From positions 113,536-177,535 of the IMG/VR virus record IMGVR_UViG_3300047369_000650: a stretch of 64,000 nt of DNA; one strand, 5' to 3'. The translations under genes and the position numbers were made by a program. The notes under the pieces were generated by a model that was not told the origin of the DNA, made no database searches, and saw only the letters and a program-made list of their open reading frames with translations. This document shows, piece by piece, positions 47,091-53,366 of the stretch; the stretch's first letter is position 1, and each line of letters begins with the position of its first letter. Origin of the DNA: a virus.

Positions 47091-47870
47091 ATGAAGAATT
47101 TTCTTCTTACTTCTTGTGCAGTGTTTGCTTTAGCAGGTAGTGCATATGCTGCGGATGTTTCTGGTTCTGTAAAACTAGAAGCAACGCAAAACGCATCTGA
47201 CGATTGGGTCGGAAAAAATACAGTAGCATTAAGTTTCGGCGCCAATGAGCCTGATGTTGGTGCATTTGGATCAGTCGGTCTTGAAATGGTAGATGGTGGA
47301 ACAGTTGCGCTTGATGCATGGTCTCTAGGTACTGCAGTAAACGGTATTTCAGTTTCTCTTGGTGATCAAGGAGATTTGTTTCCAGGTGCCGGTCTTGAAG
47401 TTGTAGGTGATGATACACTTGCAGATCCAGCATCATCTGAAAGTATTATCGTGTCAATCGGTAACGCTTCTTTCATGGCAGCAGTAACAGATTATAAAAC
47501 AGACTTAACAGAGCTAGAGAATGTTCAGCTTGGATATTCTGCTGAAGTAAGTGCTATTGATGTTGGTGTAGCAATTGATTATAATATGGATACTGAAGAA
47601 ATGGCTTATGGTGCCGATGTAGGCGCTGAAATTCAAGGTGCTGGAATTGGTGCAGTAGTAACTTATGCAGCCGAAGAGTTTGCTTATGAGGCATCTGCTT
47701 CTTACTCTGGGGTTACTGCATTTGTTAATGGCGATGACGAAGAAATGGCTCAAAATGTAGGCGGACAAGTTGCTGCTGAATTTGGCGGTCTAAATCTTTT
47801 TGCTGAAACATCATATAATCTTGATAATGAAGAATGGACTCCAGCCGTAGGTGCTAGCTTTAACTTCTAA
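47091..47870 (+). CDS. Outer-membrane porin (alphaproteobacterial-like)
   Basis: Signal peptide (SAYA), alternating amphipathic beta-strands, acidic loops, C-terminal GASFNF with terminal Phe. Confidence 0.82.
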   Translation: MKNFLLTSCAVFALAGSAYAADVSGSVKLEATQNASDDWVGKNTVALSFGANEPDVGAFGSVGLEMVDGGTVALDAWSLGTAVNGISVSLGDQGDLFPGAGLEVVGDDTLADPASSESIIVSIGNASFMAAVTDYKTDLTELENVQLGYSAEVSAIDVGVAIDYNMDTEEMAYGADVGAEIQGAGIGAVVTYAAEEFAYEASASYSGVTAFVNGDDEEMAQNVGGQVAAEFGGLNLFAETSYNLDNEEWTPAVGASFNF

Positions 47871-47922: not shown

Positions 47923-47948
47923 GGGGGGTCATGGTTAGCCCCCCTTTT
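47923..47948 (+). terminator. Intrinsic terminator
   Basis: GGGGGG-TCATGGTTAG-CCCCCC-TTTT. Confidence 0.7.
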
Positions 47949-47968
47949 CTATTAAGAAAGGATATACT

Positions 47969-48322
47969 ATGAAAAATTTAATTGTAAGCATTTTATTATG
48001 CTTTGCAACACCACTTTTTTCTCAAGAAAGCAGTGCTAAAATTTTAACAATGGGTGTACCTTGCGATAAAACACAAAATGTGTTTAATATATTGGAAGAA
48101 GCAAAAGAAGGATTACTTTTTTCTGGTGGCGGTCTAATAGCCGAAGCAACCACAAGGCAAGTTTATCCAACAGCAACTATGGTTTTTGTAAATCAAGAAA
48201 CCGGAAATTGGTCTGTTATAGCATCCTTTGGTGATGGTACTAGTTGTCTAATTATGCCTGGAAAAAACTTTACACCATATAGTGGTAAACAGCCTTGGGA
48301 TGAAGAGAAAGATGGATTGTAA
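47969..48322 (+). CDS. Secreted hypothetical protein
   Basis: Signal peptide; two Cys (VPC...TSCL). Confidence 0.7.
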   Translation: MKNLIVSILLCFATPLFSQESSAKILTMGVPCDKTQNVFNILEEAKEGLLFSGGGLIAEATTRQVYPTATMVFVNQETGNWSVIASFGDGTSCLIMPGKNFTPYSGKQPWDEEKDGL

Positions 48323-48501
48323 TGTGGACATTAGTTTTTATATATTTGTATAATACAGAACCTTTTGTTGTAAAGTATGATACTTATGAATCTATGTATG
48401 ATTGTTTTGGTCAACGTGAAGTTCTTGCTTTTGAAGTAGGCGGAAAAGATGGGTATTTCCCATCTGGTCAACAAGCTTTATGTATTTACACAGATAAATA
48501 G
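48322..48501 (+). CDS. Small hypothetical protein (59 aa)
   Basis: TAATG coupling; MWTLVFIYF...YDCFGQRE...QALCI. Confidence 0.55.
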   Translation: MWTLVFIYLYNTEPFVVKYDTYESMYDCFGQREVLAFEVGGKDGYFPSGQQALCIYTDK

Positions 48502-48532: not shown

Positions 48533-49075
48533 GTGAAACATTATGTAATATTATTTATTTTATTAATAATGGGATCTACTGCTTTTGCAGAACCTATTGT
48601 AACGGAATCTACAAGTAACAGTACAGTTGACTCAAATATAGATTCTACGACAACCGTATATTCTCCACCACCAACTGCAGTATCACCATCTATTAGCGCA
48701 ACTAATTCTGATTTATGTACTGTAGGTGTTGCTGGTGCCGTACAAACGCAGATACTTGGTATTTCAGCTGGTAGTACAGTAAGAGATATGAATTGTGAAA
48801 AATTAAAGAATGCAAAAACTTTATATGATATGGGAATGAAAGTTGCTGCAGTATCTGTAATGTGCCAAGATAAACGTGTCTTTGATGCTATGATGCAAGC
48901 CGGCACACCATGTCCATTTGATGGAATGATAGGTGAATCAGCAAAGGCTGCTTGGCAAGAAAATAAAGATATGCAGCCAGGAAGTAATTTTAAGAAAGAA
49001 ATGGATGATGCAGATAAGAAGACTCTTTGGGGCATTGGTGGTTTGGGTGGTCTCCTGCTCCTCCTCTTACTCTAA
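48533..49075 (+). CDS. Secreted Cys-rich protein with C-terminal membrane anchor
   Basis: GTG start after GGAG; signal peptide; SPPPTAVSP; four Cys; C-terminal WGIGGLGGLLLLLLL. Confidence 0.75.
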   Translation: MKHYVILFILLIMGSTAFAEPIVTESTSNSTVDSNIDSTTTVYSPPPTAVSPSISATNSDLCTVGVAGAVQTQILGISAGSTVRDMNCEKLKNAKTLYDMGMKVAAVSVMCQDKRVFDAMMQAGTPCPFDGMIGESAKAAWQENKDMQPGSNFKKEMDDADKKTLWGIGGLGGLLLLLLL

Positions 49076-49874
49076 TGGTATAGTATCCGGTACTACAAAT
49101 AATGCTGCAGCCAGTGGTTTAAATTGGAGTATGAGTGGCATATTGCCAAGTGAAACGGGTCTTATTGTAAACGGAATGATCTATAGATATACCGCAGAAA
49201 AAATAACAGAAGATGATATGAAAGTGCATATTCGTAATGAAGATACTTTATCTGATGGATATATTTTTTCTAATACCGATAATTGGAGTGGCGGCCCGGG
49301 AGGAACAATAAATAAAGTTGTACCTATAGATAGAATTTCTGGAACACGATTTGGTGATGGAGAAATATCAATTGAGGGTAGTGGTAATATAAAAGACCCT
49401 ACTGTGGTATATAGTTATCAATTTGATCCATGTGCTGTAGTCTTAAGTGATCCAAGTTGCCCTGGGTATGCAGAAGCTTTAGCCGCATTATTAGCAGAGC
49501 AGGCGCTTTTAAATCCTATTGAAACGGAAATAGAAAATCCCTATGATAATAAAGAAGTTCAAAATATATTAGACAGTGAAGTAGAAATTAAAGAAGAATT
49601 TAAAACAACCGAAAATGCCGAAAGTGAAGAAGAAAACAGTTTAGACACTAATAGTGAAATGCTTGATAAATATGCCGGACAGTTAGATTTGATGGAAGCA
49701 TATAGTGTACAAGAGCAGGGTTTAAATCAATATTACATTGTGAATATACCAGGTGGAATATATGAAGAAACGATAAAATTAGAACCTAACCAATTAGCTG
49801 ATAATAATCGTGCACTAAGAAATTTTTCATCGGATACACTACATCGTAGAATAGTTAGATCACAATATGAATAA
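49005..49874 (+). CDS. Secreted acidic protein
   Basis: Signal-like MMQIRRLFGALVVWVVSCSSSYS; beta-rich N-domain, DPCAVVLSDPSCPGY, acidic C-terminal half. Confidence 0.7.
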   Translation: MMQIRRLFGALVVWVVSCSSSYSNGIVSGTTNNAAASGLNWSMSGILPSETGLIVNGMIYRYTAEKITEDDMKVHIRNEDTLSDGYIFSNTDNWSGGPGGTINKVVPIDRISGTRFGDGEISIEGSGNIKDPTVVYSYQFDPCAVVLSDPSCPGYAEALAALLAEQALLNPIETEIENPYDNKEVQNILDSEVEIKEEFKTTENAESEEENSLDTNSEMLDKYAGQLDLMEAYSVQEQGLNQYYIVNIPGGIYEETIKLEPNQLADNNRALRNFSSDTLHRRIVRSQYE

Positions 49875-49909
49875 ATAGTAATAGAAAATAATAAATAGGA
49901 ACAAAAAAA

Positions 49910-50410
49910 ATGTTCAGAATAATTTTAACTTTAAGTGCTGTTTTAGGTATGACAAGTATAGTCTTTGCTGAGAATGTCCCGATTACGGGTACTGTAGAAT
50001 CCAAGTGTTCGGTATCAACTGAAGTTGATGGTGTGTATGGTACACCCCAGCCATATAAACTAAGTACAGCAACTTCTGATGGCGGTGTTCTACCTAAGAT
50101 CAGATTTGATACTTCACAAGCCGGTTATTATCTAGCAAGAATTACCGTGCCATCAAGCTTTTCTTCAAGTCCGAGTTTAAGTGATACTGTTGAATGGACT
50201 GGCTCAACTTCAGTAGAGTCTATGAGCGATACTGGTATGTCTGGCTATGAAGCAGCAAAAGTAACTTATGGCAATACAACTGACTATGATTTAACGGTAG
50301 CTGGTTCTGTTTGGATTAATGTATCCTCAACTGCAACATACGGTGTTGACACATCTATGCCACAAGGCGAATATACTGCAATCGTAGTTGCAGAGTGCAT
50401 AGCTCAATAA
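49910..50410 (+). CDS. Secreted pilin/fimbrial-subunit-like protein
   Basis: Signal peptide; N-terminal ITGTVESKC and C-terminal PQGEYTAIVVAEC resemble the ends of chaperone-usher pilins. Confidence 0.5.
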   Translation: MFRIILTLSAVLGMTSIVFAENVPITGTVESKCSVSTEVDGVYGTPQPYKLSTATSDGGVLPKIRFDTSQAGYYLARITVPSSFSSSPSLSDTVEWTGSTSVESMSDTGMSGYEAAKVTYGNTTDYDLTVAGSVWINVSSTATYGVDTSMPQGEYTAIVVAECIAQ

Positions 50411-50429
50411 TTGATTAGAAAAGTTTGTT

Positions 50430-50807
50430 ATGAAATATATTATATTATTTCTTGCATTATTTGTAAGCCCAGTTTACTCACATGAGATGACTCCAACATA
50501 TCCGGTTTTTGATCAATCATATGTTTCTGGGCTATCTAAAACTAGTGTTAAATTATTTAATCGGCGTGATGATGTTAGATTTTATAAAATAGATGTTTAT
50601 GATAGAGAATGGAATAAAGTACAATTTGCAACTGAGAATCAATTAGTTATCGTAAATTATCTTGAAACTAAAACTATAGATATTTATGTGAGAAATAGAG
50701 ATAGAATAAAAATCGAGTTTATTTGTACTGAATCTAAACTCGTGAAAGGTGAAGTGAAATCTACTGGAGTGTCTTCTAGGATATGTTCCAGAATAAAGAG
50801 AGATTAA
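50430..50807 (+). CDS. Secreted Ig-fold / pilus chaperone-like protein
   Basis: Signal peptide; HEMTPTYP...SVKLFNRRDDVRFYKIDV beta-rich; Cys pair in ICTES/ICSRI. Confidence 0.4.
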   Translation: MKYIILFLALFVSPVYSHEMTPTYPVFDQSYVSGLSKTSVKLFNRRDDVRFYKIDVYDREWNKVQFATENQLVIVNYLETKTIDIYVRNRDRIKIEFICTESKLVKGEVKSTGVSSRICSRIKRD

Positions 50808-50809
50808 AT

Positions 50810-51211
50810 GTGAGATTATTTTTTATTATATTATTATTTTTAAGTGGAGTTGCCTATGCTGATTCCTCTTCTTTGAATCTAGCCATACCTAATGCATCTC
50901 AAGGTTACGGTAATGATAGAATTAAAGCTGGCGACTTGGATTGTACTAATTCAATAGGATCGGCATCTTCTTTTGAATTTGGTGTTACGGGCATTATACA
51001 AAGAGAAGATGATCCTTTTAGTCAAGACTATGGTACGGGTAGAGCTGGAGATGTTGGAGTATATGGTAGAATAGTTATACCGATTGGTGGACCCAAAGAA
51101 AGAATAAATTGTAATGATCTTTATGAACTTGAGTTAAGAAAAAAGAAATTAGAAGTTATGAAACTTGAAAGAGAATTGCAACAGTTAAGAGAATTGCAGT
51201 TTGAGAATTAG
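50810..51211 (+). CDS. Secreted protein with Cys-bounded beta-hairpin and coiled coil
   Basis: GTG start; signal peptide; DC...FEFGVTG...DVGVYGRIVIPIG...NC; heptad C-terminus. Confidence 0.7.
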   Translation: MRLFFIILLFLSGVAYADSSSLNLAIPNASQGYGNDRIKAGDLDCTNSIGSASSFEFGVTGIIQREDDPFSQDYGTGRAGDVGVYGRIVIPIGGPKERINCNDLYELELRKKKLEVMKLERELQQLRELQFEN

Positions 51212-51220
51212 GAGATAAAA

Positions 51221-51406
51221 ATGGTGGACGAACCCGAAGGTAAGTTTGAAATGGCAATAAGAGTTTTAGGAAACGAATTAGTTGCTATTAAGATGGTAGT
51301 AGATGATTTTAAAATGAAATGGGTAGTTATAGGATTATTTGCAATGCTTGCAATTCTATGGGCTGGATCTGAATTTGGTCCAGCATTAATGCAAACATTT
51401 AACTAG
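51221..51406 (+). CDS. Small membrane protein
   Basis: 61 aa, AGGAG RBS, one TM segment. Confidence 0.65.
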   Translation: MVDEPEGKFEMAIRVLGNELVAIKMVVDDFKMKWVVIGLFAMLAILWAGSEFGPALMQTFN

Positions 51407-51414
51407 GTGTTTAG

Positions 51415-52230
51415 ATGGCAGAAATCGAGTTTGGTGGATTAAAATTTTCTGGTGGTAAAATGGTTGCTGTTCTTACAGCACTATCCACTCTTGGTGGAGC
51501 TGCCTGGGGAGGGTTTGAAATCTATAAAGATTATATGGATATGAAAGAAATTATCCAAAATATTGATATAGATGAAATCCAATCAGCAAATGCTCTACAA
51601 TTACAAAAACTTGAAGATGCAATAAGCTATACACAAGATATCAAAGTTGATATTAAAGCCGATATTAATAGACTTGAAGTTTTAATTACCGCAATTGAAA
51701 CTAAAACAAATAATGTTAAAATACGTGTAGATGATCAGATGACAACTATGGATGCTACAGTAAGAAATCTAAAGAATGACGTATATACAAAACTTGATAC
51801 TTTTGAAGAAAGATTAAGAACGACATTAAAAGATAATCAAACAACAATGTCTAATATTCGTAGTGATATAGCAACTCAACTAGATACATCGCAAGAAAGA
51901 CAACGCATTGCTTTAGCCGAAAATCAGAATACAATGGCAGATATGCGTGATAATATTAATACACAATTAGAATTATCTGAAAATAGAATTAAAGATACAC
52001 AATCAAGTATAGATGATGTGCTTGAAGGTATTAGAAACGAAATGAATCAGCTGCAAAAAGATGTTACCAAGAGCATACGTGAAGTTGAATCAACTATAAG
52101 AGAATCCGAAAAAGATGTTCGTGATACTATGAGACAAACTGAGTCAAGAATAGACGAAGATATGCGAATATTGGATAAAGATATTAGAGAAACTTTGCAA
52201 GAAGCATTAGATAACCCGTTAGCAGAATGA
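51415..52230 (+). CDS. Membrane-anchored long coiled-coil protein
   Basis: N-terminal hydrophobic helix followed by about 230 aa of heptad-like sequence. Confidence 0.75.
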   Translation: MAEIEFGGLKFSGGKMVAVLTALSTLGGAAWGGFEIYKDYMDMKEIIQNIDIDEIQSANALQLQKLEDAISYTQDIKVDIKADINRLEVLITAIETKTNNVKIRVDDQMTTMDATVRNLKNDVYTKLDTFEERLRTTLKDNQTTMSNIRSDIATQLDTSQERQRIALAENQNTMADMRDNINTQLELSENRIKDTQSSIDDVLEGIRNEMNQLQKDVTKSIREVESTIRESEKDVRDTMRQTESRIDEDMRILDKDIRETLQEALDNPLAE

Positions 52231-52277: not shown

Positions 52278-52505
52278 ATGAGTATGAGACCAATTTTAAT
52301 TAAAGCTTTTAGATCGCACGCCCAAGGTCATATTGACAAGCATGTAGCTAATGTTGAAGTATATCTTCACAATCCTGTAGGCGTAGGAGAACACCCTGAT
52401 ATTATGGAAGCCATTGAAACCGAAATGGAAGAAGTAGCAAAATATCACGATATGTTAGAAATGTTGGATAAGTATTTCGATGATCCAAGTAACGGAAACC
52501 GCTAA
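52278..52505 (+). CDS. Hypothetical protein
   Basis: HAQGHIDKHVANVEVYLHNPVGVGEHPDIMEAIE; GGAG RBS. Confidence 0.7.
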   Translation: MSMRPILIKAFRSHAQGHIDKHVANVEVYLHNPVGVGEHPDIMEAIETEMEEVAKYHDMLEMLDKYFDDPSNGNR

Positions 52506-52761
52506 AGAATATCTTAAAAGAATAGGTAAACCCAACGTATCTTTGACCGTAAAAGGTGGAGGATGCGCTGGGTTTCAGTACGAATGGGGTATCACAGATA
52601 AAGAACCCACTATAGAAAATTTGTGGTTAGATCCATTAGCCGAGATGTTTGTTTTCGGCTGTACTGTAGATTATGTAGAAGAACTTGGCGGTTCTTACTT
52701 AAAAGTTGTAAATCCTAATGCTACAGCTTCTTGTGGTTGTGGAGAAAGTTTTGGGGTTTAA
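52480..52761 (+). CDS. A-type Fe-S carrier (IscA/ErpA/HesB family)
   Basis: VKGGGCAGFQY and NPNATASCGCGESF with all three conserved Cys. Confidence 0.92.
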   Translation: MIQVTETAKEYLKRIGKPNVSLTVKGGGCAGFQYEWGITDKEPTIENLWLDPLAEMFVFGCTVDYVEELGGSYLKVVNPNATASCGCGESFGV

Positions 52762-52811: not shown

Positions 52812-53366
52812 ATGGCAACTTATTCGTCAATTAGATCAGCTATTGATTTAACTGCTGTTGATCAGAATATTATTCCAAATGTTGACAGTTCATATAATCT
52901 CGGAAGCCCGACTCATAAATGGAAAGACATGTATCTTTCTGGTGGTACTTTACATATAGGCGGCGTTGTGATTAAGGAAGATGCTGCTAATCCTGGAAAA
53001 ATTAAATTTGAAGATTCGGCAGGCGCTAGTGCATTTGCTGCTGGTGGTGGAATTGAAAAAGATTACAGATATAATGGAATTTTATATCCTCAAAACGGAT
53101 CTTCAAAATTATATATGACATCAACTACAACATTGAATGAAGTAATTGCTAATCTTGAGATAGCACCTTCTGGCGGAGATGTCGATCTTAGATTAAATAA
53201 AAATGGTTCTTCAGCGGCAACTCTTACAATAGCTGATAGTTCTACAACGACAACAATAACACCAAATATATCCTTTGTTTCGGGCGACTATATTACTGTA
53301 GATATAACTTCAGTAGGTACATTGACTGCTGGAACTAATTTGTATATGGCACTAAAATTTAGTTAG
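52812..53366 (+). CDS. Putative virion fibre/structural protein
   Basis: IIPN.DSSYNLGSPTHKWKDMYLS fibre motif; beta-rich C-domain; late promoter. Confidence 0.65.
   Translation: MATYSSIRSAIDLTAVDQNIIPNVDSSYNLGSPTHKWKDMYLSGGTLHIGGVVIKEDAANPGKIKFEDSAGASAFAAGGGIEKDYRYNGILYPQNGSSKLYMTSTTTLNEVIANLEIAPSGGDVDLRLNKNGSSAATLTIADSSTTTTITPNISFVSGDYITVDITSVGTLTAGTNLYMALKFS

Follow-up and report, generated by a model that had tools for sequence, protein, structure and literature searches.

Do seven consecutive phage genes for secreted and membrane proteins build a pilus-like fibre on the surface of the infected cell, as originally predicted, or do they do something else at the envelope? The window analysed here is a 64,000-nt stretch of an IMG/VR record (177.5 kb, 86% complete) from a marine T4-like phage whose hosts are probably SAR11 bacteria. 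Seven co-oriented plus-strand ORFs in the window's ORF list fill positions 48533–52230, exactly where the secreted and membrane block had been placed:

48533–49075, + strand: ORF1, 180 aa, frame gene (see below); signal-like N-terminus, Ser/Thr-rich linker, four-Cys domain and C-terminal hydrophobic anchor
49005–49874, + strand: ORF2, 289 aa, acidic; signal with a lipobox-like VVSC, globular N-terminal domain, acidic linker and conserved C-terminus
49910–50410, + strand: ORF3, 166 aa; predicted exported Ig-like beta-sandwich, candidate subunit
50430–50807, + strand: ORF4, 125 aa; predicted exported single PapD-like Ig domain
50783–51211, + strand: ORF5, 142 aa; predicted exported, with a Cys-clamped beta-rich region and then a C-terminal coiled coil
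51221–51406, + strand: ORF6, 61 aa; one C-terminal hydrophobic helix
51415–52230, + strand: ORF7, 271 aa, frame gene; N-terminal membrane helix, long coiled coil and C-terminal ALDNPL motif

We read this block, with a probability of roughly 50%, as a phage-specific envelope cassette of two modules that acts late in infection as an usher-less chaperone–subunit device.

ORF1 to ORF5 each carry an N-terminal hydrophobic, signal-like segment and two to four Cys, while ORF6 and ORF7 lack Cys and contain a single hydrophobic helix apiece; this agrees with the predicted division into five secreted and two membrane proteins. Export was read from N-terminal hydrophobicity and AXA-like sites, and the N-terminal helix of ORF7, which lies below the hydrophobicity threshold used, from the sequence and family alignment. 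The start of ORF1 is a GTG with GGAG 9 nt upstream. The best start of ORF2 (MMQIRR) overlaps the end of ORF1, an overlap that is kept in a more distant relative (L036), and only with this start at 49005 does a signal-like segment appear. The Cys residues are invariant in the family alignments (ORF1, C62/C88/C111/C127; ORF2, a pair within the globular N-terminal domain; ORF3, C33/C163; ORF4, C99/C119; ORF5, C54/C110), and conserved Cys pairs are confined to the five proteins with signal-like N-termini. Because of these N-termini and Cys pairs, the cassette proteins are unlikely to be cytoplasmic or parts of the virion. An account in which they are such components, their hydrophobic N-termini not being export signals, can point to Vibrio phages, where homologs of ORF3 to ORF5 follow a fibre-like gene within the structural region. 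Five consecutive signal-like N-termini with AXA-type sites, Cys pairs restricted to them and a small ORF with a lipobox signal next after the three genes in both Vibrio phages examined nevertheless make it highly improbable.

We found no published description of the cassette in the literature, although it is very common in marine viral metagenomes. It is kept across hundreds of uncultured marine phage contigs; IMG/VR yields at least 576 matching stretches, and 14 seawater sequencing runs contain near-identical DNA. Cellular genomes lack it, six short MAG contigs aside. Its carriers are related to phages of SAR11, a bacterial group whose abundance in the ocean is among the highest. Gene order was counted in 80 related IMG/VR loci from motif positions relative to ORF3. 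The ORF1 motif lies about 1.1 kb upstream in 65 of the 80, the exact ORF4 motif just downstream in 46, and in about 54 the C-terminal ORF7 motif follows further along; all of them are on the plus strand. Where the exact ORF4 motif is missing, all five loci tested by profile still have ORF4 adjoining ORF3, so that the two genes are adjacent in every testable locus (46 by exact motif and 5/5 by profile). Since these positions recur across the 80 loci, the synteny of ORF1, ORF3, ORF4 and ORF7 is far beyond chance, and the co-occurrence that had been put forward as a check on the prediction is strong.

The view of the seven genes as one system did not survive the comparison with cultured phages. 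The cassette is a composite of a frame (ORF1 and ORF7), which occurs without ORF3 to ORF5 in cultured Pelagibacter phages, and a trio (ORF3, ORF4 and ORF5), which occurs without ORF1, ORF2 and ORF7 in Vibrio siphophages. ORF1 has 7,985 or more relatives, all of them without a Pfam domain; homologs with 40–54% identity are found in the Pelagibacter phages HTVC115P, 023P, 202P, 033P, Baldr and Mosig, and weaker ones in Roseobacter and Ralstonia phages. ORF7 shares 45% identity with the N-terminus of HTVC115P gp49, its other matches being weak and of coiled-coil type (ZorA tail, apolipoprotein). ORF2 is 43% identical to its L036 homolog, has no match in Pfam, PDB or Atlas, and shows no detectable homology to the same-position proteins of cultured pelagiphages. 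ORF6 is absent from the L036 cassette.

Within the trio, Ig-like folds are predicted for both ORF3 and ORF4, as the original prediction anticipated. Two independent aligners match the ORF4 model to domain 1 of PapD-type chaperones, and the mature N-terminus of ORF4 aligns with that of the chaperones; the invariant C99–C119 pair bridges the last two strands. MSP/VAP domains, however, match the fold equally well. ORF4 is modelled as one domain and its listed relatives have 106–145 aa, unlike the two-domain boomerang of PapD_N and PapD_C. It has no Pfam match at E values up to 0.1, PapD_N (PF00345) included, and an hhalign comparison of its family with 11 E. coli PapD_N domains yields a probability of 0.3%; a Vibrio-phage homolog compared with the same 11 domains reaches a topologically consistent but not significant E of 0.016. 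In chaperones, the basic pair Arg8 and Lys112 anchors the C-terminus of the subunit and strand G1 is the donor strand. R8 and K112 are near-invariant in the E. coli PapD_N set; the last strand of ORF4 holds a near-invariant R117 and invariant I118 and C119, and R46 is also invariant. The Vibrio ORF4-like protein ends in AKLRLYWP, resembling the E. coli chaperone G1 motif RIKLFYRP. The predicted chaperone-like character of ORF4 holds for its modelled fold, which resembles the front half of a pilus chaperone.

ORF3 is predicted to form an Ig-like sandwich (pLDDT 89) with a disulfide from the first strand to the last. The pilin-like ends noted earlier are real and conserved in the family alignment, as an N-terminal strand motif PITGxVxSKC (P24, I25, G27, V29 and C33) and a C-terminal motif GxYTAxVxAEC (G153, Y155, A161 and C163); clustering at 90% leaves 942 relatives of ORF3. 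Residues 13–32 are unstructured in the monomer model, yet P24, I25, G27 and V29 vary little or not at all. The top Foldseek matches of the model are chaperone–usher pilins, at a weak E of about 2e-3, whereas a second aligner ranks generic beta-sandwiches first and has no pilin in its top 50 by Z. ORF3 has no Pfam match, Fimbrial (PF00419) included, and against 16 E. coli fimbrial domains hhalign gives its family a probability of 0.6%, aligning only a 16-column N-terminal motif. The Ig-like fold prediction and the pilin-like ends of ORF3 stand; its assignment to the pilins is a weak one, the model being loosely like a pilus subunit.

ORF5 has matches in 130 Vibrio phages (tblastn), where its homolog comes after ORF3-like and ORF4-like genes, so the ORF3–ORF4–ORF5 order recurs in unrelated Vibrio siphophages. 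It shows no homology to ORF1. These observations bear on an account in which ORF3 and ORF4 are independent periplasmic binders with Ig-like folds, masking for example a receptor, porin or pilus machinery (superinfection exclusion) or keeping progeny from adsorbing to debris. Both Ig and PapD-like folds often serve as scaffolds for binding, the two models match MSP domains and generic sandwiches as described, neither protein has sequence homology to chaperone–usher families, and phages are known to encode exported proteins in moron genes, lambda lom and bor and T4 sp and imm among them. We still consider independent binders improbable: ORF3 and ORF4 adjoin wherever tested, the order of the trio is kept across very distant phages, the ORF3 termini are conserved and pilin-like, and the Vibrio ORF4 homologs end in a chaperone-like G1 motif.

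If ORF3 and ORF4 do form a subunit–chaperone pair, the question becomes where its product goes. That no usher is encoded was predicted correctly: PF00577 has no match at E values up to 1 in the 177.5-kb record, and is absent from four other carrier contigs (87–155 kb) and the complete genome of Vibrio phage PS14A.1. Curli type VIII secretion modules are already known from pelagiphages, where they lie in a hypervariable region, downstream of ssrA in Melnitz, and a role in adhesion or aggregation has been proposed for them (PMC7029224, PMC9599517, PMC9004378). CsgG (PF03783) and CsgF (PF10614) have no match in this genome, and CsgG has none in five further genomes, namely four other cassette carriers and Mosig, which has the frame only. 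Because CsgG is missing from the cassette carriers and the curli-bearing HTVC008M is not among the ORF1 matches, cassette and curli module may be alternatives in pelagiphages, in a sample of six genomes.

The predicted fibre reaching the cell surface thus lacks an usher or any other recognised outer-membrane pore. A true surface fibre for adhesion or aggregation could still be built if a donor-strand polymer of ORF3 crossed the outer membrane through a small oligomeric conduit made of ORF5 or the lipoprotein-like ORF2. The fold and motif evidence for ORF3 and ORF4 applies equally to such a fibre, the Cys-clamped beta region and coiled coil of ORF5 suit oligomerisation, and the cassette may take the place of the curli modules known from the same hypervariable region. 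Against this stand the lack of a usher, secretin-like or CsgG-like pore, the size of ORF5 (about 115 mature residues, with no known pore fold), and a mutual exclusion of curli and cassette that is based on six genomes, and we regard the surface fibre as unlikely. A broader idea is possible, if doubtful: a minimal usher-independent donor-strand system of subunit, half-chaperone and small coiled-coil anchor or conduit, evolved by phages, would assemble a fibre or lattice in or on the envelope of infected Gram-negative cells, and in pelagiphages it would stand in for curli, for instance in exclusion, in a controlled failure of the envelope or in aggregation that captures siblings.

When the cassette acts is suggested by two late-promoter-like boxes, which are consensus matches in AT-rich DNA:

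48493–48500, + strand: late-promoter-like box GATAAATA, about 33 nt before the start of ORF1
49870–49877, + strand: late-promoter-like box AATAAATA, about 33 nt before the start of ORF3, with a second copy at 49890–49897

A perfect TATAAATA lies 31 nt before the gene at 52812, spaced as the box at ORF1 is. We infer that the boxes before ORF1 and ORF3 are late promoters. RNA libraries contain contigs that agree with parts of ORF1, ORF2, ORF3 and ORF6/7 to within 0–2 differences, and the cassette is probably expressed late.

Late expression would also suit a lysis function, in which the frame serves as lysis machinery, possibly together with the rest of the block, with ORF7 as an i-spanin-like inner-membrane protein, ORF1 and ORF2 as its outer partners and the trio modulating outer-membrane disruption or the timing of lysis. 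The ORF7 family (108–271 aa) has the architecture of an i-spanin and a conserved C-terminal motif, the pelagiphage literature on which we drew describes no spanin, and the lysozyme gene is one to three genes away from the ORF1 homolog in HTVC033P and in Roseobacter phage CRP-810, whereas in Baldr the homolog adjoins the terminase, like the lysis genes of T7. The same length range misfits a fixed ruler and so tells against the earlier proposal that the ORF7 coiled coil spans the periplasm. Lysis machinery seems to us rather unlikely, as no small proline-rich o-spanin lipoprotein is embedded in or adjoins ORF7, the lipobox-like signal of ORF2 is not conserved in cultured pelagiphages, Vibrio phages have the trio without the frame, and neither an endolysin nor a holin was located in this genome.

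We therefore return to the usher-less chaperone–subunit device. It is favoured because ORF4 matches chaperone domain 1 and adjoins a protein whose top Foldseek matches are pilins and whose strongly conserved N-terminal stretch is unstructured in the monomer model, because this adjacency is constant and the trio recurs in Vibrio siphophages, and because of the G1-like Vibrio C-terminus together with an usher-less precedent in Enterococcus (below). Also in its favour, Cys pairs accompany only signal-like N-termini, late-like boxes and RNA-library matches are present, and ORF1 homologs neighbour lysozyme or terminase genes. Sec export and disulfide formation would come first. The frame would consist of exported ORF1, with its four Cys and C-terminal anchor, and ORF7, with its inner-membrane helix and coiled coil, and the variable, large, acidic and putatively exported ORF2 would sit between them. 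The single PapD-like domain of ORF4 would most likely hold the Ig-like ORF3 by beta-strand complementation, in the manner of a pilin chaperone, and ORF3 may join head to tail through its conserved N-terminal strand. Because there is no usher, the product would stay periplasmic or be tethered to the envelope through the coiled-coil ORF5. The analysis itself shows the genes, how far they and their order are conserved, and which folds are predicted; export, an ORF3–ORF4 interaction, any polymerisation, late timing and a biological role are what we infer for this device, and among the roles we would rank envelope weakening or lysis timing first, a surface or aggregation fibre second and receptor masking or exclusion third. 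Usher-less donor-strand complementation between ORF3 and ORF4, if true, would extend this chemistry to viruses and to a route that dispenses with an outer-membrane platform, and would give a second example besides curli of phages providing their host with a new envelope structure. The culturable Vibrio phages PS14A.1 and pVco-14 carry the trio, which makes the question testable at the bench.

Of the known systems, we compared chaperone–usher pili (FimC–FimA, PapD–PapK/G, the FGL-type Caf1M–Caf1, SafB–SafA and DraB, and the archaic CsuC–CsuA/B) as candidate relatives. As in these pili, the gene for a predicted exported Ig-like protein, the candidate subunit ORF3, is directly followed by one for a predicted PapD fold (ORF4), the mature N-terminus of ORF4 aligns with chaperone domain 1, and the ends of ORF3 are pilin-like. 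In FGL chaperones a Cys pair joins the last two strands, as in ORF4. Unlike in these pili, ORF4 has one domain rather than two, the ORF3 disulfide joins first and last strands, profile-level similarity to subunit or chaperone is lacking, there is no usher, and the cassette is encoded by lytic-type phages, not cells. The WxL/Elr pilus of Enterococcus faecalis, a sortase-anchored Gram-positive fibre of a kind reported as confined to Bacillota, is a precedent for donor-strand assembly guided by a chaperone without an usher; its chaperone is a DUF916/DUF3324 protein with a C-terminal membrane helix (bioRxiv 10.64898/2026.10.17.759780). The cassette differs from this pilus in having no Pfam match to DUF916/DUF3324 or the WxL domain, and ORF4 has no membrane helix by hydrophobicity.

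Like the pelagiphage curli modules, the cassette is a multigene set of predicted exported proteins that both myo- and podo-type pelagiphages possess and the SAR11 host lacks; it occupies a hypervariable region close to ssrA in this window, as curli does in Melnitz, and aggregation, exclusion or lysis timing are proposed roles for both. Its folds are Ig- and PapD-like instead of an amyloid repeat and a CsgG barrel, and no outer-membrane pore was identified. With two-component spanins (lambda Rz/Rz1, T7 gp18.5/18.7, T4 PseT.3/PseT.2) it shares the membrane helix and coiled coil of ORF7, an i-spanin likeness of architecture alone, read from sequence and family alignment, and the position of the frame genes near lysozyme or terminase in podophages; the T7 lysis genes likewise adjoin terminase. 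It differs from spanins in its lack of sequence similarity and its additional large exported proteins; no small o-spanin-like lipoprotein ORF lies in or after 51415–52230, the only lipobox-like signal being that of the upstream 289-aa ORF2. Finally, the cassette resembles phage moron genes in encoding predicted exported, non-virion proteins, and the Vibrio trio, as morons do, lies inserted near tail-fibre genes. Whereas lom, bor, sp and imm are single genes with known roles in exclusion or serum resistance, the cassette is a conserved multi-gene set that includes a chaperone-like member.

Seven co-oriented open reading frames fill the whole interval 48533-52230, which bears out the gene layout of the original prediction:

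48533-49075, + strand, ORF1, protein of the frame with a signal-like N-terminus
49005-49874, + strand, ORF2, protein with a signal-like N-terminus
49910-50410, + strand, ORF3, candidate subunit, first gene of the trio
50430-50807, + strand, ORF4, predicted PapD-like half-chaperone, second gene of the trio
50783-51211, + strand, ORF5, protein with a signal-like N-terminus, third gene of the trio
51221-51406, + strand, ORF6, membrane protein
51415-52230, + strand, ORF7, membrane protein of the frame

The window makes up the right-hand 64 kb of an IMG/VR record that spans 177.5 kb and is 86% complete; its G+C content is ~33%, and nearly all genes are on the + strand. Because Pelagibacter phages are its sole DNA-level relatives among deposited phages, we treat the phage as pelagimyophage-like, with a host presumed from sequence. 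ORF1 starts at a GTG codon with GGAG upstream. The best start for ORF2 is 49005 (MMQIRR...), which overlaps the end of ORF1 and places a lipobox-like VVSC in the signal; both the overlap with ORF1 and the type of signal recur in a homolog (43% identity) from a 155 kb contig. The predicted succession of five signal-bearing, cysteine-containing proteins and two membrane proteins also held: ORF1 to ORF5 each have an N-terminal hydrophobic segment and 2–4 cysteines, all invariant in the alignment of each family, and ORF6 and ORF7 have a single membrane helix apiece and no cysteine. Cysteine conservation together with hydrophobic N-termini is the pattern expected of proteins that would be exported to, and fold in, an oxidising periplasm.

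Searches of Pfam, NCBIfam, PADLOC and PHROGs returned nothing informative for the cassette proteins, the PHROGs matches being to families of unknown function only. PDB sequences, searched with HMMs and phmmer, yielded no match for ORF1, ORF2 and ORF5 or for the profiles of ORF3 and ORF4, and the ESM Atlas linked ORF5 to unnamed viral clusters only and gave no usable match for ORF2, with a structure for neither. Matches of ORF7 to the ZorA tail, apolipoprotein and PhaR were rejected as coiled-coil composition, and a shared Cys-hairpin-Cys-helix domain of ORF1 and ORF5 was rejected at an hhalign probability of 0.3%. No published description of the cassette was found in the literature.

The block is a composite, in which ORF3-ORF4-ORF5 form a mobile three-gene unit and ORF1 and ORF7 a separate frame, because cultured pelagiphages have the frame without ORF3 or ORF4, and the two Vibrio siphophages inspected have the genes in ORF3-ORF4-ORF5 order. 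Homologs of ORF1 (40–54% identity) occur in the cultured pelagiphages HTVC115P, 023P, 202P, 033P, Baldr and Mosig, and neither ORF3 nor ORF4 was found in these phages. In the four inspected (HTVC115P, HTVC033P, Baldr and Mosig), a large exported acidic protein comes after the ORF1 homolog, and an ORF7-like protein comes next, either immediately or with a few small genes in between. Homology of ORF2 to these acidic proteins was undetectable, the likeness being one of position and general layout, and we treat them as positional analogues only. The ORF1 homolog and the lysozyme gene are one to three genes apart in HTVC033P and Roseobacter phage CRP-810, and in Baldr the large terminase adjoins the homolog. 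The OmpA annotation of CRP-810 gp53 was set aside for want of Pfam support. In HTVC115P (L001), gp46 (L001 10225-10674), the third gene downstream of the ORF7-like one and past a 685 aa hypothetical protein, is annotated as an RTX-type toxin-activating lysine-acyltransferase.

Sequences resembling ORF5 occur in ~130 Vibrio siphophages. The two inspected, PS14A.1 and pVco-14, carry ORF3-like, ORF4-like and ORF5-like genes in that order, past a fibre-like gene of 770–818 aa. Profile comparison of ORF3 with the Vibrio protein gave a full-length match (93% probability, E 3e-7); the match of ORF4 to its counterpart is weak (E 2e-3), yet full-length and with the cysteine pair aligned. Behind the trio, both phages have a small ORF whose signal contains a lipobox (LVTSC or LLSGC), immediately adjacent in pVco-14 and beyond an intervening 227 aa ORF in PS14A.1 (Vibrio phage loci L096 3757-3969 and L097 4591-4764); it may be a fourth member of the Vibrio version of the module.

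ORF4 had been predicted to be chaperone-like, and the fold agrees for one domain alone. Its model (pLDDT 86) best matches FaeE, DraB, PapD and SafB in Foldseek (E ~1e-4, TM 0.6–0.67), and since the alignment pairs residues 16/17-125 with residues 1 to ~120 of the chaperones, the mature protein corresponds to chaperone domain 1 alone. A BFVD fold search with ORF4 returned no annotated relative. The pilin-like character proposed for ORF3 is weakly supported, by conserved termini and by top Foldseek matches to CfaB, the PapG pilin domain, FimF, Caf1 and CS17; as these reach E values of only 2e-3 to 4e-2, the assignment draws mainly on context and the termini. The ORF3 model (pLDDT 89) is a beta-sandwich from residue 33 on, with residues 13-32 unstructured. 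A search of 1.84 billion representatives with the ORF3 profile recovered only 120 proteins, of which the distant full-length ones retain the end motifs; none of ten proteins scanned matched a Pfam family.

Profile-profile comparison with reference domains from E. coli K-12 gave a probability of 0.3% for the ORF4 family against 11 PapD_N domains, and of 0.6% for the ORF3 family against 16 Fimbrial domains, where the aligned part was the (V/I)x(I/F)xGxVxxxC motif only. The C-terminus of the Vibrio ORF4-like protein, AKLRLYWP, resembles the chaperone G1 consensus RIKLFYRP, which carries Lys112, at a non-significant E of 0.016. On these values, membership of the chaperone-usher families is not supported; the likeness lies in the fold, in short motifs and in the order of the genes.

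His18 of ORF4 (50481-50483) is invariant in 62 of 62 aligned window-type proteins and is the first residue past the predicted cleavage site (consensus AxA/HEMTPTYP). An N-terminal histidine can be a metal ligand. A copper site as a feature of the ORF4 family was dropped because the Vibrio-type homologs begin LTLSPM, without this histidine, and no second histidine is conserved.

At the 90% clustering level, ORF3 has 942 relatives, ORF4 222 and ORF1 at least 7,985. ORF3 relatives are encoded on at least 576 IMG/VR stretches, 80 of which were kept as a synteny sample and counted with degenerate DNA motifs. Of the 80 loci, 65 have the ORF1 motif ~1.1 kb upstream of ORF3, 46 the ORF4 motif 55–170 nt beyond it, and ~54 the C-terminal ALDNPL motif of ORF7 1.6–3.5 kb downstream; all three motifs are on the + strand throughout and in single copy per locus. 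All five long contigs without the exact ORF4 motif have an ORF4 homolog abutting ORF3 (E 1e-37 to 1e-54). Among 185,579 species genomes, a profile scan with patterns tuned to close relatives, so that distant chromosomal copies could escape, found only six copies, every one on a 3–36 kb MAG contig and from unrelated taxa; binned phage DNA is the probable explanation. The DNA recurs in near-identical form in 14 runs, of seawater or viral metagenomes, that come from many studies. RNA-library contigs match parts of ORF1, ORF2, ORF3 and ORF6/7 with 0–2 differences. As evidence of transcription this is weak, since such contigs could also stem from DNA carry-over.

Late expression of the cassette is likely from its upstream sequences. 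ORF1 and ORF3 each have a box of the type NATAAATA 33 nt ahead of the start, in each case a 7/8 match in AT-rich DNA, and the next gene cluster downstream has a perfect T4-type TATAAATA 31 nt ahead of it. A sigma-70-like site at 48325-48354 (11/12) was given little weight because it falls within a translationally coupled 59-aa ORF.

A periplasmic chaperone-subunit pair is the best-supported mechanism. Strand complementation would keep ORF3 bound to ORF4, ORF3 may self-link via its conserved N-terminal strand, and ORF5 would act as an oligomeric tether, with the trio embedded in this phage type in a membrane-anchored frame of ORF1 and ORF7. With low confidence, we rank a lysis-related envelope role above a surface or aggregation fibre, and the latter above exclusion or masking.

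Two features lie upstream of the cassette:

47091-47870, acidic 259 aa protein with a signal-like N-terminus and C-terminal ...SFNF, directly after the tmRNA gene
47923-47944, strong terminator-like hairpin, 3′ of the 47091-47870 gene

The ...SFNF ending is typical of an outer-membrane beta-barrel and suggests a candidate porin-like protein, for which a Pfam search gave no match. As the missing outer-membrane partner it was dropped, since the hairpin splits its gene from the cassette and no counterpart was seen upstream of the cassette in L036, a 155 kb relative. Directly past the L036 cassette, a 107 aa protein (L036 8887-9210) with a signal-like N-terminus, much alternating beta-type sequence and C-terminal ...RYTW resembles a small outer-membrane barrel. 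In the window, a 117 aa signal-bearing ORF (47969-48322) lies within the stretch 47961-48323. RNA-library contigs of a ~93%-identical relative have 357 unrelated letters in place of this stretch, with both flanks collinear, which suggests a slot where genes for small exported proteins are swapped. Just 3′ of the cassette, a 93 aa ORF (52480-52761) ending in ...CGCGESF appears by eye to encode an IscA/HesB-type iron-sulfur assembly protein.

In line with the predicted lack of an usher, none was found in the 86%-complete record, in four large carrier contigs or in the complete PS14A.1 genome, and neither ORF2 nor ORF5 belongs to a recognisable pore family. Curli is another fibre-secretion module known from pelagiphages, where it occupies the same hypervariable region (PMC7029224, PMC9599517, PMC9004378). 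Neither CsgF nor CsgG was found in this genome, and CsgG was not found in five further ones, so that none of six genomes with cassette or frame (this one, four other carriers and Mosig) has CsgG; the curli-bearing HTVC008M is absent among the ORF1 matches. Within this small sample of six genomes, the curli module and the cassette may be mutually exclusive. For usher-less, chaperone-guided donor-strand assembly, the WxL/Elr pilus of Enterococcus provides a precedent (bioRxiv 10.64898/2026.10.17.759780).
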